DNA of 32,000 bases from Opitutia bacterium KCR 482 (GCA_029269845.2 CP149973.1:1980001-2012000); one strand, 5' to 3'. Positions 1,221-27,644 are shown, counted from the first letter of the stretch. Notes: a model not told the origin generated them from the letters alone. Translations and numbers: made by a program.

Positions 1221-1245
1221 TTTGACACTTCCGCCGTTATGTATG
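1221..1245 (+). promoter_or_regulatory. module-start element copy 1 (TTTGACA-N15-ATG)
   Basis: tttgacacttccgccgttatgtATG. The ATG at 1243 is in frame with the ParB-like ORF. Lies in the gap after the stop at 1219. Confidence 0.5.
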
Positions 1246-1881
1246 GCAGAAGACAAAGCACGCATTTTGGCGGACGGAATTGAAGTTTGGTGCGCCTACG
1301 ACAAACTCGTAAAGGTTGACGAACTCATTCCCCACCCGAAAAATCCAAATACCCACCCGCAAAACCAGATAAAGATTCTGGCGCAAAATATCCGCTACCA
1401 CGGCTGGCGGCACCCGATTGTAGTTTCAAAGCTTTCGGGCTATATTGTGGCTGGGCACGGCAGACTCGAAGCCGCAAAAGAATTGGGCGTTTCAATCGTT
1501 CCCGTGGAGTTTCAAAAATTTTCTTCCGAAGACAACGAACTTGCCGTTCTTGTCGGCGACAACCGCTTGGCGGAGCTTTCGTCGCTCGACTTAAACGGGC
1601 TTCAAGACATCGTAGACGGCTTCAAGGAAACGAGCTTCGATACAATCTTAGCAGGCTTTGAACCCACCGATTTGAACGCTCTTCTTGGCGAAAAAACTCC
1701 CGATTTTAAAGACGAAGCCGAAAAGGAGCTTACCCAGTCGGAAGTCACAATTCAGGCTGGGAACTACCGATTCCGCATAAGTCAGGAAGATTTCGGGGTA
1801 TGGATTGACAAGTTAAAGCAGGAAGTCGGGTTCGACAAGGAATCGGTAATTGCGGAACTTCGCAGGAGGCTTTCCATATGA
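1243..1881 (+). CDS. ParB-like N-terminal (ParB/Srx nuclease-like) domain protein
   Basis: LIPHPKNPNTHP...HGWRHPIVVS...YIVAGHGRLEAAKELG matches the ParB/sulfiredoxin signature (GHxR box). Start placed at the ATG inside the repeated element rather than the track's TTG at 1222. Confidence 0.75.
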   Translation: MAEDKARILADGIEVWCAYDKLVKVDELIPHPKNPNTHPQNQIKILAQNIRYHGWRHPIVVSKLSGYIVAGHGRLEAAKELGVSIVPVEFQKFSSEDNELAVLVGDNRLAELSSLDLNGLQDIVDGFKETSFDTILAGFEPTDLNALLGEKTPDFKDEAEKELTQSEVTIQAGNYRFRISQEDFGVWIDKLKQEVGFDKESVIAELRRRLSI

Positions 1882-3389
1882 TAAAAATTGAGCCTCTTTC
1901 GGCGGTAAACCCGTCAACCTACAATCCGCGAACCGCCGATCCGAAGCGGCTTGATTTGATTGAGCTTTCGCTTCGCAAATTGGGATTTATCGCGCCCATT
2001 TACGCCGACGCAAACGGCGAAATTCTTTCGGGACACCAACGCCATTTTGTGGCAACGCGAATGGGCGTGAAAAACGTTCCCGTTTTCAGAATCCCGCCGA
2101 TGGAATTGGATAAGCGCAAGGCGTTGAACATAGTCTTTAACCGCGCCACAAACGACGGCGATATTTGCCAGACACCCGAAAAGGCTAAGCGCATTTTGGA
2201 AAGTCTAAATCTCTCGGAACTCGCCGAAAATATTCAAGACAAGGAGCTGGAGAGCAAGGAATTTTTCCGTTGCGCTTATCCTGCCAATGTGTCGGTGGCA
2301 AAACTTTGCAAGATAAATTCTGGCAGATGGATTCAATACGCAAAGAGTATTGCAAGGACTCTCCGCAAGGCTGGCATTATTATGCCGATAGTCTGTACTC
2401 CCGACGGCAAGGTTATAAACGGTATTGGGCGTTTGGAAATGCTCGCCGAACTCAAGGCGGATACTTGTGATGTTGTATATATTTCAGAGGAAGAAGCCAA
2501 ATTCGCGGACGCTATGATGAACCTGCTTACGATGGAATTCGACATTCACACGCGCTACGCCGATTTGCTTCGCTATAATTCGTTCCGACGCGCCCGCAGA
2601 GTTCGCGAAGAGTTGGGGCACGGCTTTGTGTTTGCCGTTCACGGCAACAAGCCCTGCCATAGTTTCGATATTTTCGACAACTCGCAACAGGCGAAATGGC
2701 GCAGAGAACACGGCAATTCCATTCTCGATTTCGGCGCGGGACACCTTACGGAGACAAATATTTTGAAGTCCGCGGGCTTTGATTGCGTTCCGTTTGAGCC
2801 GTATCACATAAGCGTTTCGGAAATCGACAAAGAAAAGTCCTTGGCAATATCGAGAGATTTCCTGAAAGCCGTCGGAGATGGCAAGGATTTTACGAGCGTG
2901 TTTATTTCAAGCGTATTAAATTCCGTTCCGTTCGCAAGGGATAGAGAGCACATAGTCTGCATATGCGCGGCATTGTGCCGACCTTTCACAAAGCTTTACG
3001 CCTGCGCTTCGTCAACGGCGGAGACTGGTTATAGGCAGGTAAACGGCAAGGCCTTTCATAATGAGTCGAATGCGGGTAATATCGCATTTAGACTTGAATA
3101 CGAATCGGGAGTTCGTATTGGCGATTTTCAGGACAAGCCGAAAGTTCAGAAATACCACACAAAAAAGGAATTCTACGAACTCTTTTCTCCGTTTTTTAGA
3201 AATGTTCAGATTTCGGAAATGACAGGCAACGTAAACGCCAAGTGCGAAAATGTAAGGCGCATTCCGTGGGAACGCCTCGAAGAAGCATTGAGATTTGAGT
3301 TTGACCTCCCGTATCCTGACGGTAGCCGTATGGGATTGGTAGACGAGGCAATTTCGGCATTCAAGCACCGCTATGAAATACTTGGTTGA
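1878..3389 (+). CDS. ParB-like domain(s) fused to a class I SAM-dependent methyltransferase
   Basis: N-terminus: NPRT...GEILSGHQRHFVATRMG (ParB GHxR box). A second degenerate ParB-like segment follows (IVCTPDGKVINGIGRLEMLAEL). C-terminus: ILDFGAGHL (SAM motif I), then VPFEP (acidic motif II) and VFISSVLNSVP. No DPPY/SPPY-type amino-methyltransferase motif seen. Confidence 0.7.
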   Translation: MIKIEPLSAVNPSTYNPRTADPKRLDLIELSLRKLGFIAPIYADANGEILSGHQRHFVATRMGVKNVPVFRIPPMELDKRKALNIVFNRATNDGDICQTPEKAKRILESLNLSELAENIQDKELESKEFFRCAYPANVSVAKLCKINSGRWIQYAKSIARTLRKAGIIMPIVCTPDGKVINGIGRLEMLAELKADTCDVVYISEEEAKFADAMMNLLTMEFDIHTRYADLLRYNSFRRARRVREELGHGFVFAVHGNKPCHSFDIFDNSQQAKWRREHGNSILDFGAGHLTETNILKSAGFDCVPFEPYHISVSEIDKEKSLAISRDFLKAVGDGKDFTSVFISSVLNSVPFARDREHIVCICAALCRPFTKLYACASSTAETGYRQVNGKAFHNESNAGNIAFRLEYESGVRIGDFQDKPKVQKYHTKKEFYELFSPFFRNVQISEMTGNVNAKCENVRRIPWERLEEALRFEFDLPYPDGSRMGLVDEAISAFKHRYEILG

Positions 3390-3805
3390 TTTAAACTACA
3401 CGCTTGTGGGAAATTCCCCGAAATGGGGAGAACCGCGCGCGCATTACGCCGTTTTCAAAACAGATTGAACGGGAAACATACCGCAAGTGGCTTGTTGACT
3501 TTCTGCGGGATAAATACGCAATCCTTATTACTGCGCGTCCTATTCGATACAAAGAACAAACGCTTGAAAGGATTTTCTCTCAGACAAATTGGCAACCGCA
3601 GGAAGCATATTTTGCGGAAATTTCCGCTACCCCTCCCGAAATCAAAAAAGACCTATTGTTGCGGTATATTTTCCCGAAACACGGCAAAAATAGCGCGGAC
3701 TTCTTCGGAATTGAAAGCAATCTGAAAACGCGGGCGATGTATGAACGATATGGAATAAAATCATTAAGCGAAAAAGATTTTAGAAATATCGTAAACCTCC
3801 GATAA
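3373..3805 (+). pseudogene. HAD-like paralog B, interrupted by a +1 frame change near 3410-3440
   Basis: The ATG at 3373 encodes MKYLVDLNYTLV, homologous to the paralog A N-terminus, but that frame stops at 3466-3468. Homology resumes in the +1 frame (track ORF 3404..3805: RITPFSKQIERETYRKWLV...). The C4 and G4 runs in attccccgaaatgggg lie at the junction. Confidence 0.55.
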
Positions 3806-3810
3806 TGTTC

Positions 3811-3840
3811 TTGACATCTTTGAGCACTTTTGAGCATATT
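3811..3840 (+). promoter_or_regulatory. sigma70-like promoter of the toxin-antitoxin pair
   Basis: TTGACA at 3811-3816, an 18-nt spacer, then CATATT at 3835-3840. The ATGs at 3842 and 3848 follow within 1-7 nt, so the transcript would be leaderless or nearly so. No Shine-Dalgarno sequence. Confidence 0.4.
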
Positions 3841-3841
3841 C

Positions 3842-4078
3842 ATGTCTATGAAAGAAGAAACAACATTGATAAGGGCGAGAGTTGATTCTCGCAAGGCGAA
3901 GAAAGCCGAAAAGGTATTTTCACGTCTCGGATTGAAAATGTCGGATGCCATAAATATTTTCATTTCCCAAGTAGACCTTAGGGATGATTTGCCTTTTATG
4001 GTTACGACAAAACCTGAAAGATTGCTATCAAACGAAGAACAGGGTAAAATCTGGAACGAGGCTCTCGGTGAATACTAA
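3842..4078 (+). CDS. RelB/DinJ-family antitoxin
   Basis: IRARVDSRKAKKAEKVFSRLGLKMSDAINIFISQVDLRDDLPFMV matches the DinJ/RelB ribbon-helix-helix pattern. The start is ambiguous (ATG 3842 or 3848). The stop overlaps the toxin start. Confidence 0.75.
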   Translation: MSMKEETTLIRARVDSRKAKKAEKVFSRLGLKMSDAINIFISQVDLRDDLPFMVTTKPERLLSNEEQGKIWNEALGEY

Positions 4079-4397
4079 GCAAAAACCTCGGGCTGGCGAA
4101 ATATGGATTGCCGATTTAGGAATGATTGGGAAAATTCGCCCAGTTCTTATCCTTTATTATCCAAATCCCGACGATTCGCGAATGCTCGTAATTGTAGCTC
4201 CGCTTACATCGCAAATACGGGGTTGTAATGGCGAAATTGACATTACACATATCAAGTGGTTGCCCAAGCCTTCCGCAATCAATATTCAAGGATTGGCAAG
4301 CGTGGATAAAAATTGCCTTTCAAGAAAACTCGGCATTCTGCCTGCAACAGATTTTAATAATGTAAAATCTGAAATTAAAAAACTTTTGAATCTCTAA
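4068..4397 (+). CDS. MazF/PemK-family toxin (endoribonuclease-like)
   Basis: GEIWIADLG...IRPVLIL...VIVAPLTSQIRG...PSAINIQGLASVDKNCL is a PemK/MazF signature. The GTG at 4068 is in frame and overlaps the antitoxin stop by 11 nt. The track start at 3984 would add an unrelated extension inside the antitoxin gene. Confidence 0.8.
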   Translation: MNTKQKPRAGEIWIADLGMIGKIRPVLILYYPNPDDSRMLVIVAPLTSQIRGCNGEIDITHIKWLPKPSAINIQGLASVDKNCLSRKLGILPATDFNNVKSEIKKLLNL

Positions 4398-4398
4398 T

Positions 4399-4422
4399 TT
4401 TGACACTCCGCCGTCTTGTATG
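4399..4422 (+). promoter_or_regulatory. module-start element copy 2 (TTTGACA-N14-ATG)
   Basis: tttgacactccgccgtcttgtATG. The ATG at 4420 is the ORF start. Shares the CCGCCGT core with copies 1 and 6. Confidence 0.5.
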
Positions 4423-5115
4423 GAATTACATACGGACGACAGGATTATTTCGCGGCAGAGCAACTGGGTATTTGACGAGCACGTCGCTCCCGAATTCGAC
4501 AAGCACGTCAGAAAGAGCGTGCCCAACTACGTTCACGTTCAGGATTTGGCGGAGACATTTTCCGACTGGTTCACATACCCCGATTCAACGGTTGTAGACT
4601 TCGGGGCTTCCACAGGCGAAACCCTGCGCAGAATAAAACGCCGCCATTCGAAAACGCTCAATCTCATCGGTTATGACAATTCGCAGGCGATGATAAATCA
4701 GGCGAAAACAAAAGGCGTAGACATTACTTTTGCCGACCTCGAAAAGCCGTTTGTTCTGCCCAATTTTTCCTACGCGGTTTCGCTTTACACATTGCAATTT
4801 CTGCGCCCAGACGCGCGGAACGCGCTCTTAAAGCGCATATTCCACAGCATTGAAAATTGCGGCGGAATGTTCGTCGTCGAGAAAGTTCTCGGCTCTACCT
4901 CGCAAATGCAGGACATTTTGCAACAGCTCTATTGGGAAATGAAAGCAAAAAACGGCTTTTCTTCCGAGCAAATTATCAACAAGGCAAAAGCCCTGAGAGG
5001 CTGTATGTATCCCAAAACCGTAGCCGACAACGAAGCGGAATTCTGCGCTATCGGATTCAATTCGGAAATAGTTTTCAAAGAATCGCAGTTCTGCGGCTGG
5101 CTGCTCACGAAATGA
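4420..5115 (+). CDS. CmoA-family SAM-dependent enzyme (carboxy-S-adenosylmethionine synthase-like)
   Basis: Collinear by eye with recollected E. coli CmoA. [23 protein letters not shown] matches [33 protein letters not shown] is motif I. [19 protein letters not shown]...GGMFVVEK matches FTLQFLEPSERQALLDKIY...[26 protein letters not shown] matches RANGYSELEISQKRSML. Confidence 0.7.
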   Translation: [231 protein letters not shown]

Positions 5116-5130
5116 GCGGAAGTTCTGCTT

Positions 5131-6912
5131 ATGCCCCGCAACCCGCTTTCATCAATTTTAAGGGACGCTTGGACTCCCGCCGACCGCCGTGAGCCTTGGC
5201 GTTGGTGCGAAGACCACATAAAAAGCATTCCGTATTCGCCGCTTCCAGGACCTTTCAGAAGCGAAAATTCGCCGTGGATACGCGAAGTTATGGAGGCTAT
5301 CGTAGACCCGAAAATCCGCCTCGTCTCGATTATCGCCGCCGTTCAAAGCTCGAAGACTACAAGCCCCGAGCTTACGCTTTGCTACATAATCGCAAACCTT
5401 CCTGGACCTTGCCTTTGGCTCGACCAGACGGACGAGGACGCAAAAGACGAATCTGAAAGCCGCCTGCAAAAACTTTTTGAAAGCTGTGAACCAGTAAAGA
5501 AATTGTTCCCGAAAAACAAGAATAAACAGCGCAACTGCACAATCCATTTTTCAAACGGGATGACGCTTTGGCTGCTGGGCGCGTATAACAAGACCAACCT
5601 CCAACGCCGTTCAATCCGCTGGCTTTTCGGAGACGAAACTTGGCGATGGCCAGTCGGACATATGGCGGAAGCGGAGGCGCGAACTACGGCTTTCGGGTGG
5701 CTCGGCAAATGCGTATTTATGTCGCAAGGCGGAGAGGAAAACGACGACACCCACCGCAAATTTGAAACAACCGATATGCGCGAATGGCACTACAAGTGCC
5801 CCAAATGCGGCAAATACATTCCCTACAAGTGGGAAAATATTGAGTGGGACGACGACTGCAAAGACGAAAACGGCGAATACGACTTTTCAAAAATCAACCA
5901 TTCAACCGCCTTGAAATGTCCCGAATGCGGAGAATATTTTGAAGATTCCGACAGAATGAGGCGCATTCTAAACAAAGACGGAAAGTTTATCGCGCTTAAC
6001 CCAAACGCTTCAAAAGAAAACGTGGGCTTTCATTGGAATGCGCTTGCTTCGATGAGTTGGGGTAAGCTTGCCGAGCTTTACCTTCGCGCGAAAATTGCCG
6101 CGAGAAAAGGCGACAGTTCCTTGCTTCAACAATTCTACCAGAAACGTCTCGCGCTTGCTTGGAGGGAATTTGCCGAAGACTATCGCCTTGAAATCGCATC
6201 TGGCAGCTACAATTCGGGCGACGCTTGGGGCGATGAAGCGGGCTTCAACAAGCTCGGCGAAATCATCGCTCCGCCTTTTGCCGAAAACGAGGTTATCGCG
6301 CCACTTCGCATAATGTCGGTTGACGTTCAGATGAACTGCTTTTACTTGGTCGTCCGCGCTTGGAGCATTAACGGTTCGAGCCGTCTTCTATGGCACGAAA
6401 AGGTGTTGACGTGGGAAGACATAGAGGAAATCCAAAAGCGTTTTAAAATTTTGAACAACCTTGTGTTTGTCGACGCAGGGTATAATTCGTTCGAGGTATA
6501 CAAGCATTGCGGAGAACGGAATTGGATTGCGCTTATGGGCGACAACAGGGCAAACTTCTTCCACAGACTTCCGAACGGCAAGACGGTTTTGCGGTTTTAC
6601 TCTCCCGTAAAGCACATATTTATTTCGCGCTACGTTAAGTGCCGTATGCATTTTTGGAGCAACCTCAACGTAAAAGACACCTTGGCGAGAATCAGGCGAA
6701 ACCAGAATCCCGCCGACGGCGCAACTTGGGAAGTTCCGACGGATATTTCCGAAGACTATTTAAAGCAAATGGAGTCCGAACACCGCATAAAAAAGGGCAA
6801 CTCGTGGATATGGGAGCAAATCGGCAACCGACCCAACCACTACCTCGACTGTGAAGCTATGAACTGTGCAGGCGCGTTGATGTTGAAGATTGTGGGGAAT
6901 GCAGCAACTTGA
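5131..6912 (+). CDS. terminase large subunit, GpA (lambda) type
   Basis: 593 aa. P-loop-like AAVQSSKTT, Walker B-like WLFGDE, an internal CPKCG...CPECG zinc ribbon typical of GpA-family terminases, and position just upstream of gpW-like and portal genes. Confidence 0.9.
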   Translation: MPRNPLSSILRDAWTPADRREPWRWCEDHIKSIPYSPLPGPFRSENSPWIREVMEAIVDPKIRLVSIIAAVQSSKTTSPELTLCYIIANLPGPCLWLDQTDEDAKDESESRLQKLFESCEPVKKLFPKNKNKQRNCTIHFSNGMTLWLLGAYNKTNLQRRSIRWLFGDETWRWPVGHMAEAEARTTAFGWLGKCVFMSQGGEENDDTHRKFETTDMREWHYKCPKCGKYIPYKWENIEWDDDCKDENGEYDFSKINHSTALKCPECGEYFEDSDRMRRILNKDGKFIALNPNASKENVGFHWNALASMSWGKLAELYLRAKIAARKGDSSLLQQFYQKRLALAWREFAEDYRLEIASGSYNSGDAWGDEAGFNKLGEIIAPPFAENEVIAPLRIMSVDVQMNCFYLVVRAWSINGSSRLLWHEKVLTWEDIEEIQKRFKILNNLVFVDAGYNSFEVYKHCGERNWIALMGDNRANFFHRLPNGKTVLRFYSPVKHIFISRYVKCRMHFWSNLNVKDTLARIRRNQNPADGATWEVPTDISEDYLKQMESEHRIKKGNSWIWEQIGNRPNHYLDCEAMNCAGALMLKIVGNAAT

Positions 6913-7466: not shown

Positions 7467-7490
7467 TTTGACACTTGCCGAGTGTGTATG
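7467..7490 (+). promoter_or_regulatory. module-start element copy 3 (TTTGACA-N14-ATG)
   Basis: tttgacacttgccgagtgtgtATG. The ATG at 7488 is in frame with ORF 7482..7745. Confidence 0.5.
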
Positions 7491-7745
7491 TCCAATTACA
7501 TTTACACACGCGGGTATACAGTGGCGGAGCTTGAGGCTTTGCTTGTTCGGGTAAAAGCCGAAAGGGAAAAATATCTTCAATCGGCTTCAGATAGCGGAAG
7601 CTCGTATTCGCGCATAGCACTTTCGGAAATCGAGAAGAAGTTCAACGGCATAATGGACGCGTTGGAACTTCTCGCGCCCGAAAAATACCCCAAAACAAAC
7701 CGCCGAATTTTCCTAAGCGGCGTAGTCGGAGGAGTTATCCAATGA
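7488..7745 (+). CDS. gpW-like head-tail joining protein
   Basis: About 85 aa, sitting between GpA terminase and portal as lambda W does. Helical N-terminus (AELEALLVRVKAEREKYL) with a basic tail. The stop overlaps the portal ATG (ATGA). Confidence 0.45.
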   Translation: MSNYIYTRGYTVAELEALLVRVKAEREKYLQSASDSGSSYSRIALSEIEKKFNGIMDALELLAPEKYPKTNRRIFLSGVVGGVIQ

Positions 7746-9157: not shown

Positions 9158-9971
9158 CATCTTTCTAAACGGCATTTGCAGACCGTGGAATATCCACGCG
9201 GGAACGTTCCTTGCGCTTTCGCTTAGAACGCTTGCTGAGGCTTCGGGCGGAAATTCCCTCGAAACTTGGCGGGAGAAATTCTCGCAATTCGTTCCGCAAC
9301 GAAGCCCGCTTTCAATAGACGAAAACAGCATAGCGCATATTTCAATTCACGGAACGCTTTTTAACAAGGAAGCCCCGTATTTTGTGGCAGGCTATGGCGG
9401 AACCGACTACGCGGAAATTCTGCGCGACATTGAAACCGCTTCCGAAAAAGCTAAGGCGATTTTCCTGAAAATAGATTCGGGCGGCGGACACGCCTGCGGG
9501 AACGACAAAGTGGCAAAAGCCGTTTCGCAATGTCCAAAGCCCGTATTCGCCTACACCGACGAAATGTGTTGTTCTGCGGCATACGCGATAGCTTCGGGAG
9601 CTTCATACATCTGCGCGTCGGCGGATTCAACCGTTGGCAGTATCGGAACAATTCTTCCGTTAATGGACGTTTCGGGACTTTGGCAGTCGCTCGGGATAAA
9701 GCCCGACTACATTACAAACCGCGAGGGAACGCTCAAAACGGCGGGCTATCCGCCGAGCCAGAACGAAGCCGAACGCGCAGCTTTGCAAGCCGAAACGCAG
9801 GAGTATTTCGAGCTATTTAAATCACACGTTTTGGCAAACAAGCAAATTGCAAACGACGATATGCGCGGACAGGCGTTTGTAGGTATTGATGCGTTAAAGC
9901 GCGGGCTTGTCGACGAAATCTGCGACGAAAAGACCGCCTACAACAAACTCAAAATTTTGACAACCTGCTAA
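9147..9971 (+). CDS. S49 (SppA/ClpP-fold) head maturation protease
   Basis: FLKIDSGGGHACG, PVFAYTDEMCCSAAYAIASGA and STVGSIGTI match S49 peptidase blocks (IDSPGG, ASggY, GSIG). Confidence 0.85.
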   Translation: MANNIFLNGICRPWNIHAGTFLALSLRTLAEASGGNSLETWREKFSQFVPQRSPLSIDENSIAHISIHGTLFNKEAPYFVAGYGGTDYAEILRDIETASEKAKAIFLKIDSGGGHACGNDKVAKAVSQCPKPVFAYTDEMCCSAAYAIASGASYICASADSTVGSIGTILPLMDVSGLWQSLGIKPDYITNREGTLKTAGYPPSQNEAERAALQAETQEYFELFKSHVLANKQIANDDMRGQAFVGIDALKRGLVDEICDEKTAYNKLKILTTC

Positions 9972-9976
9972 GAAGT

Positions 9977-10381
9977 ATGGACGAATCTAAACAAAAAACA
10001 CTTGCCGATGCCATCGCGAAAATCGAGACGCTTTCGGCGGAAAATACGAATCTTGCTTCGGATTTGGAAGTGGCAAAGGCGCACATCTGCGAACTCGAAA
10101 ACGAATTGTCTGCCGAAAAGTCAGCGCACAATTCAACAAACGAAAAGCTCGCCGCGCTCGAAGCAAAGCACCGAGACATCGACAAAGAGGTTTCGGCAAA
10201 AGTCGCAAAAGTTGCGGCGCAAAGCGGAGTTTCACCGATTGCGGACGTTTCCAACAGTATCAACAATGAAAGCCTTGAAGAGCTTGCAAAGCGCATTGAC
10301 GCCGCCCACGGAATCGAAAAGGCAAAACTCATCGAGGAAAACTACGAACGCATTATGTCGGCAATGAAAGGAGCGTGCTAA
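9977..10381 (+). CDS. scaffolding-like coiled-coil protein
   Basis: 134 aa, Ala/Glu/Lys-rich heptad-like sequence, positioned between protease and capsid genes. Confidence 0.6.
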   Translation: MDESKQKTLADAIAKIETLSAENTNLASDLEVAKAHICELENELSAEKSAHNSTNEKLAALEAKHRDIDKEVSAKVAKVAAQSGVSPIADVSNSINNESLEELAKRIDAAHGIEKAKLIEENYERIMSAMKGAC

Positions 10382-11275
10382 GTGAACACAATTCCCGCAG
10401 CATTAAGGCGTTCGCTGATTTTGAAGTCGGCGATGGAGGAATTTAAGCACAAGCTCATTCCGCTTGGCTTGTTTTCAACGGTTCTTCGCAACGTTCCGCT
10501 CGAAGGCAACAATGAAATTGACATTCCGTATATCCCGCTTGCCACGAGCGCGAGCAAGGATTTTGACGTAACGTATAAGTTCGACAAGGGCGATATGGAG
10601 TCCCGCAAAATCACGGTAGATAGGCGCAAATACCAGTCGCTTACATACACGTCGGAGGAAAAGGCGCGCCAGCCGTATTTCGACCCGATTACGTTGGGTC
10701 GCCTCAAAGGTGCGAAGCTTGCCGAAGACGTATTGCTCGACATCTTGTCGGTAATCACCAAGGCGAATTTCGGCGAGGCGATTCTCACAAGAAACGCGAC
10801 CGACTTCGACACCGATGACATCATAGACCTCGAAACGAAGATTGACGAGCTTGAATGGCCAGACTCTCCGCGCGGAATGCTTTTGAAGTCGTCGTATATG
10901 GCGAACGTAAAAAAGGACATCAAAACATCTGGCGGGCTTGCAAACTTCGGGTTTTCGGCGTTGGGCGAACTGCCGAACCTTTTGGGATTTAGCTTTTCCA
11001 AGTTCAACAGGCTTCCGCACAACAACGAAAAGTTGCAGGGCTTTGTTGTGTATCCTTCGGCGATAATGGTTGCCCTTGCGCCGATTCAGCCTACGGCAAA
11101 CGTTATGAAGCAGCTTTCGACATACACGACCTACACCGACCCGCAGACTGGGCTTACGCTTGAATACCGCGCTTGGGGCGACGCAGATACGGACGCTTCA
11201 AAGGAAATTATCGAGTGCAATTACGGCTTCGGCGTTGGCGAAAGCAAGGCATTAAAGCGCATAGTTTCGGAATAA
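10382..11275 (+). CDS. putative major capsid protein
   Basis: 297 aa directly after the scaffold. GTG start preceded by AAAGGAG about 10 nt upstream. Called from position and size only. Confidence 0.55.
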   Translation: MNTIPAALRRSLILKSAMEEFKHKLIPLGLFSTVLRNVPLEGNNEIDIPYIPLATSASKDFDVTYKFDKGDMESRKITVDRRKYQSLTYTSEEKARQPYFDPITLGRLKGAKLAEDVLLDILSVITKANFGEAILTRNATDFDTDDIIDLETKIDELEWPDSPRGMLLKSSYMANVKKDIKTSGGLANFGFSALGELPNLLGFSFSKFNRLPHNNEKLQGFVVYPSAIMVALAPIQPTANVMKQLSTYTTYTDPQTGLTLEYRAWGDADTDASKEIIECNYGFGVGESKALKRIVSE

Positions 11276-18309: not shown

Positions 18310-18332
18310 TTTGACACCCGCCGTTTAGTATG
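18310..18332 (+). promoter_or_regulatory. module-start element copy 6 (TTTGACA-N13-ATG)
   Basis: tttgacacccgccgtttagtATG. The ATG at 18330 is the ORF start. acccgc (18316-21) and gcgggt (18332-37) are complementary. Confidence 0.5.
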
Positions 18333-19019
18333 CGGGTAAGATTGCAGAACGGCGAGGTATGTTTTTTGCGGGATTCGGGCGAGCGGATTGTTTCGGCGGA
18401 TTCGGTCGCGACGTGCTCCGCCACTTGGTTTTGCTATCCGTGTTCGGCGGCGCTTGCGCATTGCCCGATTGTAAACAAGTCTCCGCACCCGATTTGGTCG
18501 GATTTGTATTGCAAGTCGGTAGGCATTAAGCGGCACGGCGAAGGCGCGATAATCACCGCCCAATACGAGGGTTCGGAATTCGTCTGGGATTCGGACAGGG
18601 ATTCCTCCGAAAACACCGTCGAAGTCTCCTGCACGATGCGCGAAGAGCCGATAGAAAGCCACCCCGATTTCGAGAGATGGGCGGGAAGTCCCGACAAGCC
18701 CAACTGCGGAATATTCGACGACGACGGCAAATTCGTCGGCTGGAATTCCAAAACTCAGGGTGGCAAAATAATGGCGGGTGTTAAAAGCTACCTCGTGCCG
18801 TCGTATTCGGCGGCGGTAGGCTACATTTCAAGGGGAATTCCGAGCCTCGGCGGAATCGGCTCAATCGGCGGCGGCAGCGGACTGCCCACAGTCGGCGGAA
18901 ACCGCCAGTGGATGTGCACGGGAATTTCCTACAACAAAATGGCGGACGGCAAATACAAAGTCTCCATCACCTACCTTTTGAGCGGCCCGAACGGCTGGAA
19001 TAAATACATATACAAATGA
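18330..19019 (+). CDS. hypothetical tail protein
   Basis: 229 aa, with an ATGA overlap to the collagen-like fibre gene. Positional inference. Confidence 0.35.
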
Positions 19020-22035: not shown

Positions 22036-22038
22036 GTT

Positions 22039-22093: not shown

Positions 22094-22858
22094 TTATTGA
22101 TATAAATCGGTAAAAATGCCCTTTAGCCCGACAGGATTTACCGAGATGATTTTCGTGTCAGGATAATACGTTTCGGCAAATTTTTTTAACATTATCCAGT
22201 TGCCGATTAGTTTGTTCATTGAAGTTGTCGACTTTGTTTTATCGAAATATCCCGAAGAGCAATCGCAGCCTACAAGATAAATCTTGTCTGGGTTTGTCCA
22301 AAGAATAAATTGCATGGCCGAGAAACTTACCGAATTAAAATCTCCCAACATTGTAGATGAAATATCATATGCAAATTGATGAGGTTTACATATTTCGTCA
22401 GTAAAGTAGCGGCTGGCTTTTAATTTTAACGCTAAAGATTCGGGGATAATCAGATTTGATTGCGGAAGAACGCCAATGAACTTTTTTATGTGCGAGTATT
22501 TTTCTTCTAAGAGGTAGCAAATATAGTCTTTTGAATTAAAATCTTGAATAAAAAGATAATCCAAATTCAATTTATCAAATAAGAATGACTTATTTACTCC
22601 AACATTAACTACATTTGGTATTTGCTTATACTGCGATAGGGTTGGCCCAGTAGCAATTAGTGCAACTGACTTGCCTTCATTAATATTTTTATATTTATCA
22701 AAAGAATGTGAATGAATTTTTGCCACACTATTTGCCAGCATGGTGGCTCTAATTGCCAGCCTGTAGTCGGATTTATCGAAAACTCTTTTATGAAATTTGA
22801 TTCCCATAAAATTGTAAGTTTTATGGACTCCGTCTTCTGAAATTTTAAATAGTTTCAT
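22094..22858 (-). CDS. DUF115 / sialyltransferase-like glycosyltransferase
   Basis: VALIATGPTLSQY (compare the IAGNGPSL box of GT42/DUF115 proteins) and IYLVGCDCS (compare IYLxGxD). AT-rich. Confidence 0.45.
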   Translation of the reverse strand: MKLFKISEDGVHKTYNFMGIKFHKRVFDKSDYRLAIRATMLANSVAKIHSHSFDKYKNINEGKSVALIATGPTLSQYKQIPNVVNVGVNKSFLFDKLNLDYLFIQDFNSKDYICYLLEEKYSHIKKFIGVLPQSNLIIPESLALKLKASRYFTDEICKPHQFAYDISSTMLGDFNSVSFSAMQFILWTNPDKIYLVGCDCSSGYFDKTKSTTSMNKLIGNWIMLKKFAETYYPDTKIISVNPVGLKGIFTDLYQ

Positions 22859-23630
22859 TTGTCAAAAGGATTTCAAAAAAGTTGCCAAATTTTGTGCCCC
22901 AACTTGGAGTTTTTATATCTGATGTTAGCATGGCAAATAACTTTTCGTTATTTAGCGGGTTCATTTTAGCGTCTCTCATATTTTTCCATTTACTGGAAAC
23001 GCTTACGATTTTTTCGGATGTATTTTTCAAGTCCTTAAAAAACGGAGGGTGTAGTGCTAAAAAAACTGTATAATCCGAAAGATTTTTCAAATCGTCTAAA
23101 ATAAGTTCTTCAGCGCCTTCAATGTCTATTTTTATTATTAATTTTTTCCCGAATAGGTTTTTGTTTTTAATAAAGGAGGAGAGTTTTGTTGATGGAATTT
23201 TCCAATCGTGCCCTCTAATACTCGACGCAGAAGATGTGCCGTTTTTTATTTTCCCTCCAAAATCTACTATACCGCCGTCTACATTTGTAACGCATAAATT
23301 ACTTAAATCTGCAGAAAGCGTGCTTTTATTGTATGCGCAATTCTGTTTTACGATAGCAAAAGATTCGGGGTTTGCTTCAATCCCATATATTTGTTTGTAT
23401 CCCAATTCTGCGGCAAAAAATATTGTCATGCCAACCCATGTTCCGACATCTATATAAACGGCGTCTGGAGAAACAAACTGTTTAAAAATATTGTAAGTTT
23501 GAGGTTCCCATCCCGTTTTGTCGTATTCATTCCAAAACCAATGATTTTGCACTTTGAAATATGTTTTATTTATTTCAATAAAGCGCGTTTGTGTGTATTT
23601 CTTTGAATTAAACCAAGTTAGTTTTAACAT
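22845..23630 (-). CDS. FkbM-family methyltransferase
   Basis: VYIDVGTWVGMTIFFAAELGYKQIYGIEANPESF matches the FkbM motif (DVGAnxG...EP.P). Confidence 0.65.
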   Translation of the reverse strand: MLKLTWFNSKKYTQTRFIEINKTYFKVQNHWFWNEYDKTGWEPQTYNIFKQFVSPDAVYIDVGTWVGMTIFFAAELGYKQIYGIEANPESFAIVKQNCAYNKSTLSADLSNLCVTNVDGGIVDFGGKIKNGTSSASSIRGHDWKIPSTKLSSFIKNKNLFGKKLIIKIDIEGAEELILDDLKNLSDYTVFLALHPPFFKDLKNTSEKIVSVSSKWKNMRDAKMNPLNNEKLFAMLTSDIKTPSWGTKFGNFFEILLTNETI

Positions 23631-23634
23631 ATTT

Positions 23635-24741
23635 TTAATATTTTAACTTTTTGCCGAACAGGCGGTTGAAAAAGGAAAGAGATTTTTTTCTTTCGTTCTG
23701 CCAATGTAGATCATATAGATCCTTGTATAAAAATCGCTTTGCCTCTGCAAACTTATCCGAATCAGTCCTGAGAACTTCTTCGCCTTTTAAAACACGTTGA
23801 TAGAAATCAACATGATGGCAAACAAGATTTTCTTCGTTATAGTATTTCGTTATCCAATCCCTTGAAAAATTTCCTATGTCGGATAATAAATTTTTGTTTT
23901 TCAATAAATTTTTTAAAACAATTTCTATGTCGTTTATGGACGTGTTTACGAATGGGCAATCGTTGCATTTGAAGTAGGAGATAAAGTTCTGCATAGAACG
24001 ACCGTCAAGAAAACAGAAAACTACTTTCCCTTGCGAAAGGCCTTCAAATTCCGTAAGGTGAAATGAACCCGTTACAATATCGCCAATAAGGATATCGGCT
24101 TCTCTTCGAATTTTAATCGCTTCGTTATAGGGTATTCCGAAAATTTCCACATATTTAAAACCCAATTTTGTTGATAACTTTTTTAGCTTGGAGGAAACCT
24201 CGGGATATCCTTTTGTGTCCCATCTACGTTCAAATCTTTTCCGTTTTGTAGATGCAGAAAATGCAACTATTGGAATTTCATTCCATGTCTTTTTCGGGGA
24301 TAATTCTTCGGATTGTGTCGGAATAATGTTTGGCAGAATTTCGACATCTAAAAAAGATCTTTCGGGATAGTGTGGAATGACTGCCCGTGCATTAAACCCC
24401 TTTAAACATGGATTCGAAAGGCCATATACAAAGCGATTCGAATGAAAGTGCTGTATGAATTTACAAGAAGGTTTGGCGAGTTCTTTTAGGCTTATGCCAA
24501 ACTTATTGTTTACCAAATCCATTGGGTGATGACATACAATTATATCTGCTGCGGAAATTAACGAAAGAGCAATGTTCTTGTCTTGCTGCCAAATTAAATC
24601 TTCGGGGAAAACTCTGGAATTATAGGCGTTTGGATTCAAATTAATTAAACGAGCTTTCACATTTGTAAAAGCGTTTAACGCATTTACAATTCTTATAGGA
24701 GCGCCCGCCAATGGTGTATATGTTAAATGAACAACCAACAT
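23635..24741 (-). CDS. putative glycosyltransferase (GT-B-like)
   Basis: 368 aa within the glycan gene cluster. The N-terminus (LVVHLTYTPLAGAPIRIVNAL) is typical of GT-B N-domains. Weak call. Confidence 0.35.
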   Translation of the reverse strand: MLVVHLTYTPLAGAPIRIVNALNAFTNVKARLINLNPNAYNSRVFPEDLIWQQDKNIALSLISAADIIVCHHPMDLVNNKFGISLKELAKPSCKFIQHFHSNRFVYGLSNPCLKGFNARAVIPHYPERSFLDVEILPNIIPTQSEELSPKKTWNEIPIVAFSASTKRKRFERRWDTKGYPEVSSKLKKLSTKLGFKYVEIFGIPYNEAIKIRREADILIGDIVTGSFHLTEFEGLSQGKVVFCFLDGRSMQNFISYFKCNDCPFVNTSINDIEIVLKNLLKNKNLLSDIGNFSRDWITKYYNEENLVCHHVDFYQRVLKGEEVLRTDSDKFAEAKRFLYKDLYDLHWQNERKKSLSFFNRLFGKKLKY

Positions 24742-25577
24742 TATACAAAGTCTTTCACAAATATATTTCTGATAAGAAAGTTATATATTTTTTGTGGGGT
24801 ATGCAAAGAGTTCACAGTATACAACGACAATGATTCATATTTATACCACAGAATTTTTACTCGATTTAGTGTAAACTTCCGCCATGGTTTACTCGGTCCG
24901 ACGTAGTGGATAATTTTTGCCGAGGGGACTTTTTCGGGAAAGGCCTTTTGGTGGGCGCGTTTGAAATTATAGATACAGTCAAGTTCCTTAATTTTGCCGT
25001 TGAAGGTTACGTTGATTGTGTCTTGGTCTTGGTATTTGAAATTGTTTTCGGCGGTGAGTTTGAAGAGTTTTTCGGCGATGTCGGTTTTGCGCATTTCGTC
25101 GAGGTTGAAGAGAATCACCCCAGCGTTTATATACAGCCCGTCAAGCCCGAGTGTCTTTTTATAGCCGACGCTTTCTATGTAGATGTCGCTTACGCCCGCG
25201 CAGTAATAGTTTGTTAAATCGGTATCGAAGAGTTCGCAAATGTCGCCGTTTACGATTGTGTCGCCGTCCAGATACAAAACACGGGAAATATTAGGCAAAA
25301 CTTCGGCTATCATATAGCGGAAGTATGTCTCCCTTGTGATATGCCCGATTGTCAGTCCGAACTTTTCAAAGCGCGAATCGTCTATTTTGTGGAATTGGAT
25401 TTTCGCGTTTTTATAGCGCGTTTCAAACATCTTCAGGCGCGCGGTTGTAGCTTCGCTTAAATCCGAATGTAATATGTGGACAACCACATTGCGCGAAGCG
25501 TTGTTTTCCAAAAGCGACACAATGGAAACCGCCATGTACGGCGCAAAACTTTCATTCGTGGCGTAGCAAATGTCCAT
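24741..25577 (-). CDS. family 8 glycosyltransferase (LgtC/RfaJ-like)
   Basis: ICYATNESFAPYMAVSIVSL, DxD at YLDGDTIV, GVILFNL and HYVGPSKPW are GT8 hallmarks. Start set at the ATG at 25577 (MDICY), 1 nt after the upstream stop, with GGGGGA upstream. Confidence 0.8.
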   Translation of the reverse strand: MDICYATNESFAPYMAVSIVSLLENNASRNVVVHILHSDLSEATTARLKMFETRYKNAKIQFHKIDDSRFEKFGLTIGHITRETYFRYMIAEVLPNISRVLYLDGDTIVNGDICELFDTDLTNYYCAGVSDIYIESVGYKKTLGLDGLYINAGVILFNLDEMRKTDIAEKLFKLTAENNFKYQDQDTINVTFNGKIKELDCIYNFKRAHQKAFPEKVPSAKIIHYVGPSKPWRKFTLNRVKILWYKYESLSLYTVNSLHTPQKIYNFLIRNIFVKDFV

Positions 25578-25578
25578 T

Positions 25579-26394
25579 CTATTTCCCCCTGCATATTGAG
25601 GATATTGCGTATCTGAACTTGTAAACCAGACGAGCGAACGGATAGTGATATTGTTTCTTGCGTGAAATTCCCGAGGGAGTATCGGCAAGTTCGCAACATG
25701 GCGGCAGCAGACCTTGCACATCGAGTTTGGTTTCCCAAGTGTATTGCAGATCTACGTCTATCGGACGGAAAAAGCGCGACCGCTTTTCAAGAAATTCCTT
25801 TGCGCCGTCTTTCGTGATTGCGTATGCCTGTGTTCCCGCCGGCGGTTTTTTCCATCGAACAAGTTCAAATGCAATCGGAACGGTTATGCTTTTTGAAGTT
25901 TTTGTTATCTTGGGCGCATTTGGCGGATTGTCCGACGTCCAATTTTCTATATCACAAGTTGCGGGAATTTCAAAAGCGACGGGTTTGCTTGAAACTATCT
26001 TCTTCCTCTTAAACGGCGCAATTAGTTTGATGTAATTCCAATTCGTGATTGAATCCAGTGCGTGCGGAACAAGGGCGAAAGAATCCTTCAAAATAATATC
26101 GTCTTCAAGTATAATTACGTAGTCGAGGTTTTCGGAGAGGATTTTTTCGCAAACCCTCAAATGGCTGATATAACAGGCTATTTCCGACCTGCTTAAGTCT
26201 ACATAATATTTGCGCCTGTTGAGTTCCGCCGAGTAATAATGGCGCAAAAGCTCGTCGGATATTTCGCGGCCGTCGACCGCCGAGAAGCGCTCATAGGGTA
26301 GCCCCAACTTTTCAAGTTGCGCACGCATGGCGCACCACCTCGACACATCCCTATCGAGATTGATTACGAATATCTTATATTTCATATGCTCCAT
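25579..26394 (-). CDS. family 25 glycosyltransferase (LOS/LPS beta-glycosyltransferase-like)
   Basis: KIFVINLDRDVSRWCAMRAQLEKLGLPYERFSAVDG and EIACYISHLRVCEKIL...YVIILEDDI match GT25. The start is ambiguous (ATG 26394 or 26385; the track uses GTG 26418). Confidence 0.8.
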   Translation of the reverse strand: MEHMKYKIFVINLDRDVSRWCAMRAQLEKLGLPYERFSAVDGREISDELLRHYYSAELNRRKYYVDLSRSEIACYISHLRVCEKILSENLDYVIILEDDIILKDSFALVPHALDSITNWNYIKLIAPFKRKKIVSSKPVAFEIPATCDIENWTSDNPPNAPKITKTSKSITVPIAFELVRWKKPPAGTQAYAITKDGAKEFLEKRSRFFRPIDVDLQYTWETKLDVQGLLPPCCELADTPSGISRKKQYHYPFARLVYKFRYAISSICRGK

Positions 26395-26442
26395 TTGTTG
26401 CCGTTGGGGTACAAACACACTTTTCCCACAACAACGAGCGTA

Positions 26443-26458
26443 GTATTAAGAATACGAT
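26443..26458. repeat. inverted copy of the integrase-proximal palindrome
   Basis: gtattaagaatacgat is the exact reverse complement of atcgtattcttaatac at 26605-26620. Confidence 0.7.
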
Positions 26459-26598
26459 ACCAGACAAATATTCTTCAAGTGCCTAAAATATAAATTGATG
26501 TGTAAATATGAACGAAGATATTTTGATAAAATCTTGAAAAATCCACCAATTGAATCCCGCCTTTTATATTTTTATTTCACGTGTTTGAAAAATAAAAA

Positions 26599-26623
26599 TT
26601 GACAATCGTATTCTTAATACGAT
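26599..26623 (+). promoter_or_regulatory. TTGACA box plus 19-bp palindrome overlapping the integrase start
   Basis: TTGACA at 26599-26604, then atcgtatt-ctt-aatacgat (26605-26623, 8-bp arms), whose last two bases are the AT of the ATG at 26622. Confidence 0.5.
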
Positions 26624-27617
26624 GAACACGGAATACATTTCAGCTAAAAGGATTTTGACGGGGACTGACGTTTCCGTTTTGGACGCGGCAAGAATCGCAA
26701 AAAACATTTTGGACGCAAAACCGAAAAACTTCGCCCTTACCGACCTCCAATTTTGCGCAAAAGTCATTGAAGTAGGGTTACGACATATCCGCACAAAGGA
26801 AATGTCCCTCGCCGACGGATTTGCTCTATATTTAAAGAGCAAGCAACATTTGCGTCCAGATTCGATACGGGACATTCGCTGTATTGGGAATAGGCTTTTG
26901 CGGATAACCCCCGAGTTTGGCAAACGTAATTTTTCAGAGCTTAGCGTAACGGAATGCGAGGAATGGCTGAACGCTGCGTTTCATACGGATAGTCAATTCA
27001 ACAAAGCGAGGACTATGTTGCACGGATTGTTTGAATTCGCCCGCCGCCGCGAGTGGTGCGACAAAAACCCGATAAAGCGAATCGAACGCCGTAAAGTCGT
27101 CGAAAAGGAAATCCAGCCGTTGAAACTTGCCGAAACAAAGCGGTTAATCAAAAACGCGCAACGCGAAAGCCCCGTATATGCTGTTGTCGCCGCGCTTTTG
27201 GTCTATACTGGAATCCGTCCGCGAGAAGTCCGACGCCTTACTTGGCGAGACATTGACACCGAAGAAAAAACAATCACAGTTCGTTCGCAGTGCTCGAAAA
27301 CAGGCGGCGTCCGCCAAGTGGAAATCCCTCCCGTTTTGAACAGGCTTTTGATTGTCAATAAATCCGAAAACACTTCCCATATCTGCCCGACAGACTGGCA
27401 ACGCCGCTGGCGCAAAATCCGTGACAATTCGGGCTTTCGCGGGCGTTGGGTTCAGGACGTTTTGCGCCATACCTACGCAAGCTTTCACGCAAAAAACTAC
27501 GCCGACTTGCCGCGCCTTCAACTGAACATGGGACACCGCGACCAATCGCTACTGCGCTCCCGCTACATCAATATGCACGGTATTTCCCGCGCCGAGGCAA
27601 AAAGCTTTTTCAACTGA
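26622..27617 (+). CDS. tyrosine recombinase / phage integrase
   Basis: GIRPREVRRLTWRDID (box I Arg), VLRHTYASFHA (HxxR region) and LNMGHRDQSLLRSRYINM (His plus the catalytic Tyr). Confidence 0.9.
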   Translation: MNTEYISAKRILTGTDVSVLDAARIAKNILDAKPKNFALTDLQFCAKVIEVGLRHIRTKEMSLADGFALYLKSKQHLRPDSIRDIRCIGNRLLRITPEFGKRNFSELSVTECEEWLNAAFHTDSQFNKARTMLHGLFEFARRREWCDKNPIKRIERRKVVEKEIQPLKLAETKRLIKNAQRESPVYAVVAALLVYTGIRPREVRRLTWRDIDTEEKTITVRSQCSKTGGVRQVEIPPVLNRLLIVNKSENTSHICPTDWQRRWRKIRDNSGFRGRWVQDVLRHTYASFHAKNYADLPRLQLNMGHRDQSLLRSRYINMHGISRAEAKSFFN

Positions 27618-27620
27618 TAA

Positions 27621-27644
27621 TTTGACAAGTCTGCTTCTTGTATG
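27621..27644 (+). promoter_or_regulatory. module-start element copy 7 (TTTGACA-N14-ATG)
   Basis: tttgacaagtctgcttcttgtATG. The ATG at 27642 is the ORF start. gacaag..cttcttgt (27624-41) pairs with acaagaagcttgtc (27667-80). Confidence 0.5.

Follow-up and report, generated by a model that had tools for sequence, protein, structure and literature searches.

A TTGAC box at a short fixed distance from late-gene start codons: a candidate class of leaderless promoters in Verrucomicrobiota prophages

Eight box-ATG units in the window

The window, by which the whole analysed stretch of 32,000 nucleotides is meant (Opitutia bacterium KCR 482, CP149973.1:1980001-2012000), is prophage DNA carried by a gut bacterium of the Opitutales (Verrucomicrobiota). 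The motif wTTTGACA-N13-15-ATG is found in it eight times, always on the plus strand, which is the gene strand. The excess over shuffled sequence on which a preliminary description of this DNA depended is indeed there, 0.29 copies being expected from 100 dinucleotide shuffles, of which the richest held 3. That description had counted seven copies; all seven were recovered, box and ATG alike, and an eighth had been overlooked, with its box at 9956-9962 and its ATG at 9977 (site 4 below). Each of the eight ATGs opens a long ORF on the plus strand (8/8, 85-737 aa), as had been described for the seven. The sites are the following.

Site 1, 1221-1245, plus strand: aTTTGACA-N15-ATG, opening a ParB_N-domain gene (1243-1881), with orthologous sites in 30 loci
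Site 2, 4399-4422, plus strand: tTTTGACA-N14-ATG, opening a SAM-methyltransferase gene (4420-5115) upstream of terL, with orthologous sites in loci L001-L004 and L048
Site 3, 7467-7490, plus strand: tTTTGACA-N14-ATG, opening an 85-aa gene (7488-7745) directly 5' of the portal gene
Site 4, 9956-9979, plus strand: tTTTGACA-N14-ATG, opening a 134-aa gene in the scaffold position (9977-10381), the box lying within the 3' end of the S49 protease gene
Site 5, 13116-13139, plus strand: tTTTGACA-N14-ATG, opening a 103-aa gene (13137-13448)
Site 6, 14593-14616, plus strand: tTTTGACA-N14-ATG, opening a 120-aa gene (14614-14976)
Site 7, 18310-18332, plus strand: tTTTGACA-N13-ATG, opening a 229-aa tail-region gene (18330-19019), the upstream neighbour lying on the opposite strand
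Site 8, 27621-27644, plus strand: aTTTGACA-N14-ATG, opening a 737-aa tail-fibre-like gene (27642-29855)

The box is preceded by A or T in 8/8 copies and directly followed by C in 5/8, and CCGCCGT is common to the copies at 1221, 4399 and 18310, as previously noted. All eight copies end in GTATG; the spacer ending in GT, presented earlier as a shared property, thus holds throughout the window but belongs to this clade and not to the wider family. The reported lack of a Shine-Dalgarno (SD) sequence also stands: nothing SD-like precedes any of the eight ATGs, while internal genes of the window carry GGAGG, AGGAG or GGAGGAG 7-9 nt upstream of 1878, 7742, 10382, 11497 and 15493.

Conservation of the signal and its relation to a phage HTH gene

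The comparison set consists of 48 related prophage loci together with the window, the hosts ranging from 43 to 65% GC. Across this set, an ATG-opened ORF begins 12-17 nt after TTGACA for 184 of 285 hexamers on the gene strand, with spacers of N13 (79), N14 (63), N15 (20) and N16 (33); the corresponding figure for the opposite strand is 15 of 74. The element recurs at the same gene boundaries in related genomes: the sites fall at orthologous genes in these 48 loci, and the corresponding genes that bear them in Verrucomicrobia prophages number in the hundreds. At the 84-86-aa gene preceding the portal region, for example, the signal is kept family-wide, and outside L044 and the Opitutales clade no sequence similarity to the site-3 gene can be detected. 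At orthologous terS sites, box and ATG alone are conserved and the flanks have diverged. The A/T-rich 5' flank of the box is a property of the low-GC clade, GC-rich relatives reading cgg/gcgTTGACA. The family core is K-TTGAC-(A>G,T), a spacer of 13-16 nt and ATG. TTGACA is by a wide margin the leading hexamer 13-16 nt upstream of candidate starts (113/274), and only its sixth position varies (TTGACT 10/80, TTGACG 16/211), all remaining one-mismatch variants scoring 0-3. GTG serves as start codon at 23 sites.

A perfect -35 hexamer, TTGACA, is present at all 8 window sites and at the 184 family sites, and the host uses canonical promoters, as does the Puniceicoccales phage P8625. Ordinary sigma-A promoters could be imagined on these grounds, with the -10 element lying in codons 2-4, transcription beginning about 15 nt inside the ORF and the ATG being used solely on read-through RNA. 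We find this barely credible. A consensus promoter scan detected no -10-like hexamer 16-18 nt after the box at 8/8 window sites, and at spacings of 16-19 neither an A at the second nor a T at the sixth hexamer position emerged in either GC class. The resulting transcripts would moreover be devoid of a start codon, and the ORF begins at an ATG that is itself conserved; the 86-aa gene even has an N-terminus that is alike from the first residue in several loci (MARGLFITGF, MAQGLF...).

Other known layouts were looked for as well. Position tables anchored on box and ATG describe the spacer as A-poor and C-rich, then G- or T-rich. They contain no -10 box 5-8 nt before the ATG, as found in the leaderless layout of Deinococcus, Actinobacteria and P8625, and an SD-like 4-mer occurs in 10 of 152 N13-15 spacers. 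No conserved GG or GC flanks the box at the fixed spacing of the sigma54 -24/-12 element (GG-N10-GC, TGGCAC-N5-TTGC), and the family sites do not carry the Bacteroidetes-type pattern (TAnnTTTG at -7, TTTG at -33). The misfit with all three standard promoter types, stated beforehand, was thus confirmed. Rfam yielded 0 matches at gathering score within the window. Some low-GC inserted genes (morons) of the window do carry ordinary -35/-10 boxes.

The signal had been proposed to mark every module boundary. It instead marks a temporal class, namely the genes downstream of a conserved phage gene, located immediately before terS and the first box, whose product is a putative helix-turn-helix (HTH) protein of LuxR/sigma-region-4 type. 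In 12 of the 14 loci with this gene the first site falls between -77 and +12 nt from its end; in one clade it lies 1-5 kb away. Ahead of the HTH gene, 4 sites were counted over 78 kb, and beyond it 90 over 217 kb; 71 viral contigs selected solely for carrying this gene gave 17 in 474 kb and 129 in 546 kb, respectively, so that sites are about 7-8 times rarer upstream. The HTH gene is co-oriented with the early operon and ends it, is preceded by an SD in L029, and lies outside any lysogeny module. Its product has a near-invariant recognition helix (TRAAVSKR) and belongs to no described family, with no match in Pfam or PHROG. The top fold matches of its AlphaFold model (pLDDT 84) are the DNA-binding domain of NarL (rmsd 2.1 Å over 48 residues at a probability of 0.97), GerE and region 4 of SigD/SigA, all with non-significant E values of 0.24 or higher against solved structures. 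The TTGAC late-gene class probably depends on this protein.

Asymmetric TTGACA-containing sites, numerous, in one orientation and in short intergenic gaps, also recall the stoperators of Cluster A mycobacteriophages, where the repressor (L5 gp71) binds a 13-bp site, CTTGACAKCCACC, oriented along transcription at many gene boundaries. A prophage repressor would likewise block lysogen transcription at many boundaries from asymmetric TTGACA sites. The density of about 8-9 mostly intergenic, orientation-specific sites per 20 kb would suit such silencing, as would the C-rich flank that comes after the shared TTGACA core (three window copies have CCGCCG) and a weak, non-significant local match of the HTH family profile to the Cluster A immunity repressor (7r6r, E 0.88). 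Stoperators are, however, spread over early and late arms without regard to start codons. The present boxes keep a fixed distance of 13-16 nt from the ATG, for which silencing offers no reason, and are restricted to genes that follow the HTH gene, the early region being nearly devoid of them. With TTGACA serving as the -35 consensus as well, the 6-7 bp conserved family-wide would not suffice to give a repressor its specificity. The motif is furthermore invariant over phages whose proteins share only 25-60% identity, unlike immunity specificities, and the position of the HTH gene at the end of the early operon is not that of a lysogeny gene. Silencing of this kind therefore seems distinctly improbable.

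Hairpins, divergent units and the start of transcription

In several window copies the spacer pairs with the first codons of the gene, and at site 5 an intrinsic terminator overlaps the start.

1228-1252, plus strand: site-1 hairpin, spacer with codons 1-3 (CTTC.GCCGT/ATGGC.GAAG; z = -1.9)
4407-4444, plus strand: site-2 hairpin, spacer with codons 1-8 (GTATG/CATAC, CGTC/GACG; z = -3.3)
7478-7513, plus strand: site-3 hairpin, spacer with early codons (GTGTGTA/TACACAC; z = -2.8)
13123-13148, plus strand: intrinsic terminator overlapping site 5 (stem GCCCATA/TATGGGC, UUCG loop, T6 run)
14604-14641, plus strand: site-6 hairpin, spacer with early codons (TTGTATG/CATACAA; z = -2.7)
18317-18367, plus strand: site-7 hairpin, spacer with codons 1-9, then a T6 run (z = -2.8)

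Hairpins joining spacer and coding start are enriched across the family (61/188 against about 25 in controls). Among six orthologues the site-2 stem shows two compensatory pairs and, on the sense strand, a U-G wobble, and relatives of site 3 with a different N-terminus have a changed spacer that still pairs (TTCGCC/GGCGAA). The enrichment and the site-2 changes indicate that spacer-containing RNAs exist and matter, and they also fit a function at the RNA level. UUGACA, 13-16 nt ahead of an SD-less AUG, could indeed be a translation enhancer, or the site of a translational regulator, on long polycistronic late RNAs, the adjacent hairpin gating the AUG with the help of a Com-like activator or through coupling to upstream ribosomes. 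In many cases the box begins only 1-10 nt past the end of the upstream ORF, or lies inside it, which leaves no room for termination, and upstream ACA motifs reportedly enhance translation in enterobacteria (PMC3879156). We nevertheless hold this explanation to be rather unlikely. Stem mismatches amount to 3 G-T versus 8 A-C, hence there is no general sense-strand wobble signature, and both the presence and the position of the hairpins vary among loci. In E. coli, no accessible stretch of 16S rRNA is known to be complementary to UUGACA. The invariance of TTGAC+N and the onset of sites right after a gene of DNA-binding HTH type fit a DNA reader better.

The base preceding the start codon is C or T in 82% of the sites and in 37% of the SD-led starts of the same loci. 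This pyrimidine, which has no obvious translational role, agrees with the Y-1/R+1 rule for transcription start sites (PMC4782308). In five loci, GC-rich divergent pairs of the form CAT-N13-TGTCAA-N7/8-TTGACA-N13/14-ATG place two start codons about 47 bp apart, and beyond the two units nothing between the start codons is conserved. Each unit must thus carry its own promoter, which an RNA-level element would not provide.

The hairpin at site 5 has the GC-rich stem, UUCG loop and T6 run of intrinsic terminators. The ATG of site 5 lies within its 3' arm, and codons 1-4 of the following gene are formed by this arm and the U-tract, which sets the hairpin apart from other intrinsic terminators overlapping a downstream start. 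Any RNA containing the spacer would consequently be terminated there, and the transcript of the downstream gene must start inside the hairpin. The terminator tracks a co-oriented low-GC moron upstream, being present in the window, L002 and L004 and absent in L001. Together, the divergent units and the terminator overlap point to a self-contained promoter starting at or beside the ATG. The preliminary description had left the choice between a compact leaderless promoter and an RNA-level site undecided; the comparative evidence favours the former and weakens the latter.

A putative compact late-gene promoter

The sequences show the motif with its spacing and conservation, its placement with respect to genes and to the HTH gene, and that -10 and SD elements are missing; the start point, the reader and the role of the hairpins are what we infer. 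Sequence comparison makes it moderately probable that TTGAC box and ATG form a self-contained, DNA-level class of late-gene promoters giving leaderless mRNAs in a prophage family widespread among Verrucomicrobiota. An HTH reader of sigma-region-4/LuxR type would bind K-TTGAC-N; the -35 box is read by sigma region 4 in the same TTGAC+N conservation pattern. The likeliest reader, working together with host RNA polymerase, would be the conserved phage protein whose gene immediately precedes the first box; region 4 of the host sigma-A is an alternative candidate. Transcription would begin 13-16 bp downstream of the box, at the A of the ATG or a few bases from it, and the leaderless or nearly leaderless message would be translated without an SD. 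The hairpins would act only on read-through RNA from upstream, which the one at site 5 would terminate and in which the others would bury the AUG; RNA born at the ATG would not contain the 5' arm and would escape the hairpin. That a polymerase led by a region-4-only phage protein, or a sigma-A remodelled by it, starts exactly at the start codon with no -10 element is a more tentative proposal, which we regard as doubtful. We know of no bacterial holoenzyme that initiates 13-16 bp from a -35-type box, which counts against the promoter reading, as do the 23 GTG-start sites and the clade in which the first site is 1-5 kb from the HTH gene; melting of a GC-rich spacer devoid of a -10 element is another difficulty. 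The counts cover phage loci, and host genes may use the signal through a host alternative sigma factor.

Leaderless promoters of sigma70 type (Deinococcus-Thermus, Actinobacteria, lambda PRM, P8625, some inserts of the window) share with the present sites the TTGACA consensus, the missing SD and a fixed distance between promoter and start. Their box lies about 30 nt from the ATG, however, instead of 13-16, and a -10 hexamer stands 5-8 nt before the ATG, where the present spacers are GC-rich and A-poor. P8625, a phage without this HTH protein, has TTGACA-N30-ATG four times at exactly 30 nt, which is the canonical geometry for a leaderless message. Akkermansia has canonical promoters, with 10% leaderless start sites.

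A short invariant box repeated before late genes only, together with a small regulator gene that closes the early region and directly precedes the first box and terS, is reminiscent of late systems that depend on phage factors. Examples are the T4 late promoter TATAAATA with gp55/gp33, SPO1 gp28 and the RinA/ArpU-type late activators encoded just upstream of terS; the T4 middle MotA box at -30 is used with AsiA/MotA. In contrast to these, the present box is identical to the host -35 hexamer, occupies roughly positions -19 to -14 relative to the presumed start and has no -10 partner, the messages would be leaderless and the regulator is of no described family. [quoted passage not shown] The present sites differ in having no SD and in the distance of 13-16 nt between box and start, and the evidence for them favours a role in transcription. 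The SAS, in comparison, spans 13 bp, contains the ribosome-binding site and stands a few bases ahead of the start codon.

A compact late-gene promoter of this layout looks undescribed. If the more tentative proposal of a start exactly at the start codon is true, it would represent a new bacterial promoter geometry, with initiation 13-16 bp from a single -35-type box and without a -10 element, and the starts of transcription and translation would be coupled for a whole late regulon across the prophages of a phylum.

The TTGAC box and its start codon

The window contains eight matches to TTTGACA-N13-15-ATG, every one on the + strand, where dinucleotide shuffles would lead one to expect 0.29. The preliminary description had listed seven copies, all of which are indeed present, but its count was short by one:

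9956-9979, + strand: site 4, the eighth copy, its box in the final codons of the S49 protease gene, its ATG at 9977

The ATG at 9977 starts a gene in the scaffold position. At all eight sites the motif ATG opens an ORF (85-737 aa) and no Shine-Dalgarno (SD) sequence is seen, as had been proposed for the seven copies; operon-internal genes of the window do have one, of the GGAGG type, 7-9 nt before 1878, 7742, 10382, 11497 and 15493. The eight copies all end in GTATG, with A or T before the box, and a consensus scan detected no -10-like hexamer 16-18 nt past the box at any of them.

Taken together, the window and 48 related loci have 285 TTGACA hexamers on the gene strand; for 184 of them, an ATG that opens an ORF of 50 codons or more comes 12-17 nt later, gene calls being crude in the GC-rich loci. 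The spacers are mostly N13 (79) and N14 (63), with fewer N15 (20) and N16 (33). On the opposite strand, 15 of 74 hexamers have such an ATG, belonging to divergent genes. Conservation at the same gene boundaries, which the preliminary description had left to be checked, is observed in loci with host GC contents of 43-65%: sites recur at orthologous genes, namely terS, a ParB-like gene, an 84-86-aa pre-portal gene, the scaffold gene, a 103-aa gene and one of roughly 120 aa.

When all hexamers were scanned 13-16 nt before candidate starts, TTGACA came out as an outlier (113/274). Only its sixth base may vary (TTGACT 10/80, TTGACG 16/211, other one-mismatch variants 0-3), and three lineages mainly use TTGACT or TTGACG. 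Sigma region 4 reads the -35 element likewise, TTGAC being strong and the last base weak. The family position tables give K-TTGACA-c (K being G or T, never C), followed by a spacer with few A and a C-rich first half, ending in five bases that favour G where the host is GC-rich and T where it is AT-rich; SD-like 4-mers occur in 10 of 152 N13-15 spacers. Over the three bases directly ahead of the ATG (-3 to -1), the tables show two G and then a pyrimidine, so the GT of GTATG is local to the window's clade. The TTTGACA...GT-ATG motif first described holds family-wide for the TTGACA box and the ATG but not for the GT; other clades read GGC, GTC or TAT before the ATG, and GTATG was rejected as part of the motif.

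Short lineage-specific repeats are also seen directly upstream of the terS box: GGAACTT three times in related locus L002 (3034-3063) and TGTAAA-N2-TGTAAA in L008 (9287-9316) as well as L028, while L003 has a TGTAACATGTTACA palindrome (4151-4180). They may be extra regulator sites for the first packaging gene.

The prophage and its inserted genes

The window is a prophage. Besides a pair of ParB_N-domain genes and a methyltransferase, it has genes for a lambda-type portal, an S49 protease, capsid and tail, one tail-fibre-like gene, and a large terminase:

5131-6912: large terminase

The relatives of this terminase place the prophage in Verrucomicrobiota. One, in a Hadza-gut Opitutales MAG, is 99% identical. 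Further ones belong to Chthoniobacterales, Verrucomicrobiales, Akkermansia, some strains of which have a prophage of the L025/L029 type, and Puniceicoccaceae Marseille-Q1082, a cultured lysogen with two of these prophages (L002 and L004).

The prophage is broken up by low-GC morons: a MazF/PemK toxin cassette, a DUF2513 gene, a DAC-domain-like gene, a Schlafen/AlbA_2 gene on the minus strand, and a glycosyltransferase operon with a tyrosine recombinase. The toxin cassette (3811-4397) comprises a small upstream ORF (3830-4078) and the PemK/MazF gene (3984-4397, Pfam E 1.7e-13), with a canonical-looking promoter, TTGACA-N18-CATATT; it is seen in the window only and is missing in 48 of 48 related loci. 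Since these loci keep the motif, MazF/PemK was rejected as an ACA-cutting reader of UUG-ACA. The moron at 11844-13109 (31% GC) has a 421-aa product whose C-terminus matches DAC (diadenylate cyclase) weakly, under the Pfam cut-off; in relatives this spot is occupied by different low-GC genes, one of 387 aa in L002 and a small-gene pair in L004. Between the tape-measure gene and site 7, the minus-strand gene at 16974-18269 has Schlafen AlbA_2, HATPase_c_4 and winged-HTH domains and may be a defence or regulatory moron; TAATAT/TATAAT hexamers adjoin its ATG.

A perfect 16-nt inverted repeat (26443-26458 / 26605-26620; GTATTAAGAATACGAT / ATCGTATTCTTAATAC) encloses a 146-bp AT-rich intergenic segment (26459-26604), which separates the minus-strand glycosyltransferase operon from the tyrosine recombinase gene (26622-27617). 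The layout is similar to that of an invertible promoter switch; no flipped copy of the segment was seen, and contigs L051 and L054 have it in the same orientation. At ~22094-30790, the fibre/86-aa/155-aa/68-aa block is reversed relative to the tail genes in five contigs (L050-L054) as compared with the window, the reversed block of L051 and L054 including the recombinase and glycosyltransferases. This could reflect a large inversion or another prophage arrangement. Lastly, a cytosine-5 DNA methyltransferase gene (GFPCQ motif) at 30888-32000 runs past the window end, with an N-terminal HTH-like region and its own SD (AAGGAG); the TTGACA palindrome lying within it (31322-31345) is unrelated to the motif.

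Proposed promoter geometry and hairpins over the spacer

The TTGAC-box signal is read, from the sequence, as a putative promoter with a deduced geometry in which transcription would start at the ATG and yield a leaderless late-gene message. Back-to-back units, CAT-N13-TGTCAA-N7/8-TTGACA-N13/14-ATG, occur in five loci, with about 47 GC-rich bp between the start codons and nothing else conserved there. Both divergent genes need a promoter and the boxes are the sole candidates, hence their reading as promoters. Motif starts have C or T at -1 in 82% of cases; for SD-led starts of these loci the figure is 37%. Such a preference agrees with the Y-1/R+1 rule at bacterial start sites, Akkermansia included (PMC4782308), and was thus counted in favour of a start at the ATG. 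At the site at 13116, the spacer and first codons form a predicted intrinsic terminator, GCCCATA-TTCG-TATGGGC then T6. Any RNA containing this spacer would end four codons in, so that the RNA of the 13137 gene would begin inside the hairpin; its predicted start must lie at most about 6 nt before the ATG. The terminator is present together with a co-oriented low-GC moron directly upstream in the window, L002 and L004; L001, a locus overlapping the window, has neither the upstream moron nor a hairpin of this type.

The preliminary view that standard sigma promoters do not fit is borne out, sigma54 and the Bacteroidetes -7 box being at odds with the position tables. Nor do these tables accommodate ECF-type, sigmaB-type or sigma32-type spacings, a canonical -10 hidden in codons 2-4, or a TRTG extended -10 using TATG. 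An ordinary -35 box with a hidden -10, which they exclude, is scarcely credible, and a host alternative sigma factor is left with the residual probability. Ordinary -35/-10 boxes are present on some window morons, most clearly at 3811 and 6930, and the Puniceicoccales phage P8625 has TTGACA-N17-TATTGG-N7-ATG, the box-ATG gap being exactly 30 nt at four genes. Hosts of this class therefore use the canonical geometry and tolerate leaderless messages; the 13-16 nt class differs from such promoters. P8625 promoters of this type also share a GTATCC...GGATAC inverted repeat between box and ATG (5412-5450, 10736-10774, 15558-15596), which may be an operator.

Strong stems between spacer and first codons were found at 61 of 188 sites, against about 27 with shuffled and about 23 with swapped spacers; for six of the eight sites in the window, the native sequence folds better than its own shuffles (z -1.9 to -3.3). 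In the site 2 hairpin, L003 has compensatory changes at two pairs, and five of the six sequences retain a U-G wobble; where relatives differ in N-terminus at site 3, their spacer differs too and matches it. Such hairpins are the best argument for an RNA-level enhancer or regulator site, which would also account for the boxes packed tightly behind upstream stop codons. This alternative nevertheless looks rather unlikely, as it accounts neither for the divergent units and the pyrimidine at -1 nor for the overlapping terminator and the link with a putative DNA-binding protein. No known RNA family matched in the window. Counting G-U versus A-C mismatches (3 versus 8) to tell RNA from DNA hairpins was abandoned, the numbers being too few and in the opposite direction. 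Because their position and presence vary, the hairpins are treated as accessories of the proposed promoter, where they might act on read-through RNA as terminators or AUG traps.

A candidate reader and relation to known systems

An uncharacterised phage protein of predicted helix-turn-helix (HTH) fold is encoded a few kb before the window's first base, as seen in L001, which reaches farther upstream:

L001, 1529-2050: HTH gene, encoding a 173-aa protein, just before the first box

Neither Pfam nor PHROG gave a match for this protein, which belongs to a family of more than 100 proteins, with a near-invariant helix, TRAAVSKR, within the helix-turn-helix. Its AlphaFold model (pLDDT 84) is closest to NarL/GerE DNA-binding and sigma region 4 domains, at non-significant values (E at least 0.24), and significantly matches uncharacterised phage proteins (E 1e-6). 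Of 14 terL-selected loci containing the HTH gene, 12 have their first gene-strand site between -77 and +12 nt relative to the gene's last codon. Relaxed sites in these 14 loci number 4 in 78 kb upstream of the gene versus 90 in 217 kb downstream; in an independent sample of 71 viral contigs, picked by the HTH gene alone, there are 17 in 474 kb versus 129 in 546 kb. The motif was not found at early genes (helicase, primase-like). This absence, the fixed spacing and the short conserved core speak against stoperator-like repressor sites, a very unlikely reading despite a sequence and orientation like those of the L5 site. The placement of the HTH gene, at the end of the early operon, resembles a late-activator layout and makes its product a likely candidate reader of the proposed promoter. 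P8625 has no homologue of this protein. In several lineages (L001:2036-2050; L002, L004, L024, L032) the final codons of the HTH gene contain the first TTGACA box, which in the window's clade encodes the conserved C-terminal Leu-Thr of the protein (AAT TTG ACA CGC).

The TTGAC-box signal shares its outcome with canonical leaderless-message promoters and differs from them in geometry. Phage late-promoter classes that use a phage factor follow the same logic, with the box at another position, and the signal here has no -10. The start-associated sequences of Cluster K mycobacteriophages are likewise linked to starts but include a ribosome-binding site. No description of the motif was found in the searchable literature. 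The signal is rated, on sequence grounds, as a probable phage late promoter with leaderless expression.

In the usual bacterial promoter the -35 element lies some 30 bp before the start, and melting of the DNA falls to a -10 box. If they are promoters, the TTGAC boxes break this spacing rule, and would show how one short box can run the entire late regulon of a phage without ribosome-binding sites; the deduced geometry, if true, could be a new mode of promoter recognition. The signal would also offer a compact expression cassette, perhaps a factor-dependent one, for use in organisms where genetic tools are scarce. The motif directs attention to an uncharacterised family of phage proteins as a likely late regulator. 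Easy to search, it flags both the starts and the temporal class of genes in Verrucomicrobia prophages, those of Akkermansia and gut Opitutales included, where better gene calling would follow.
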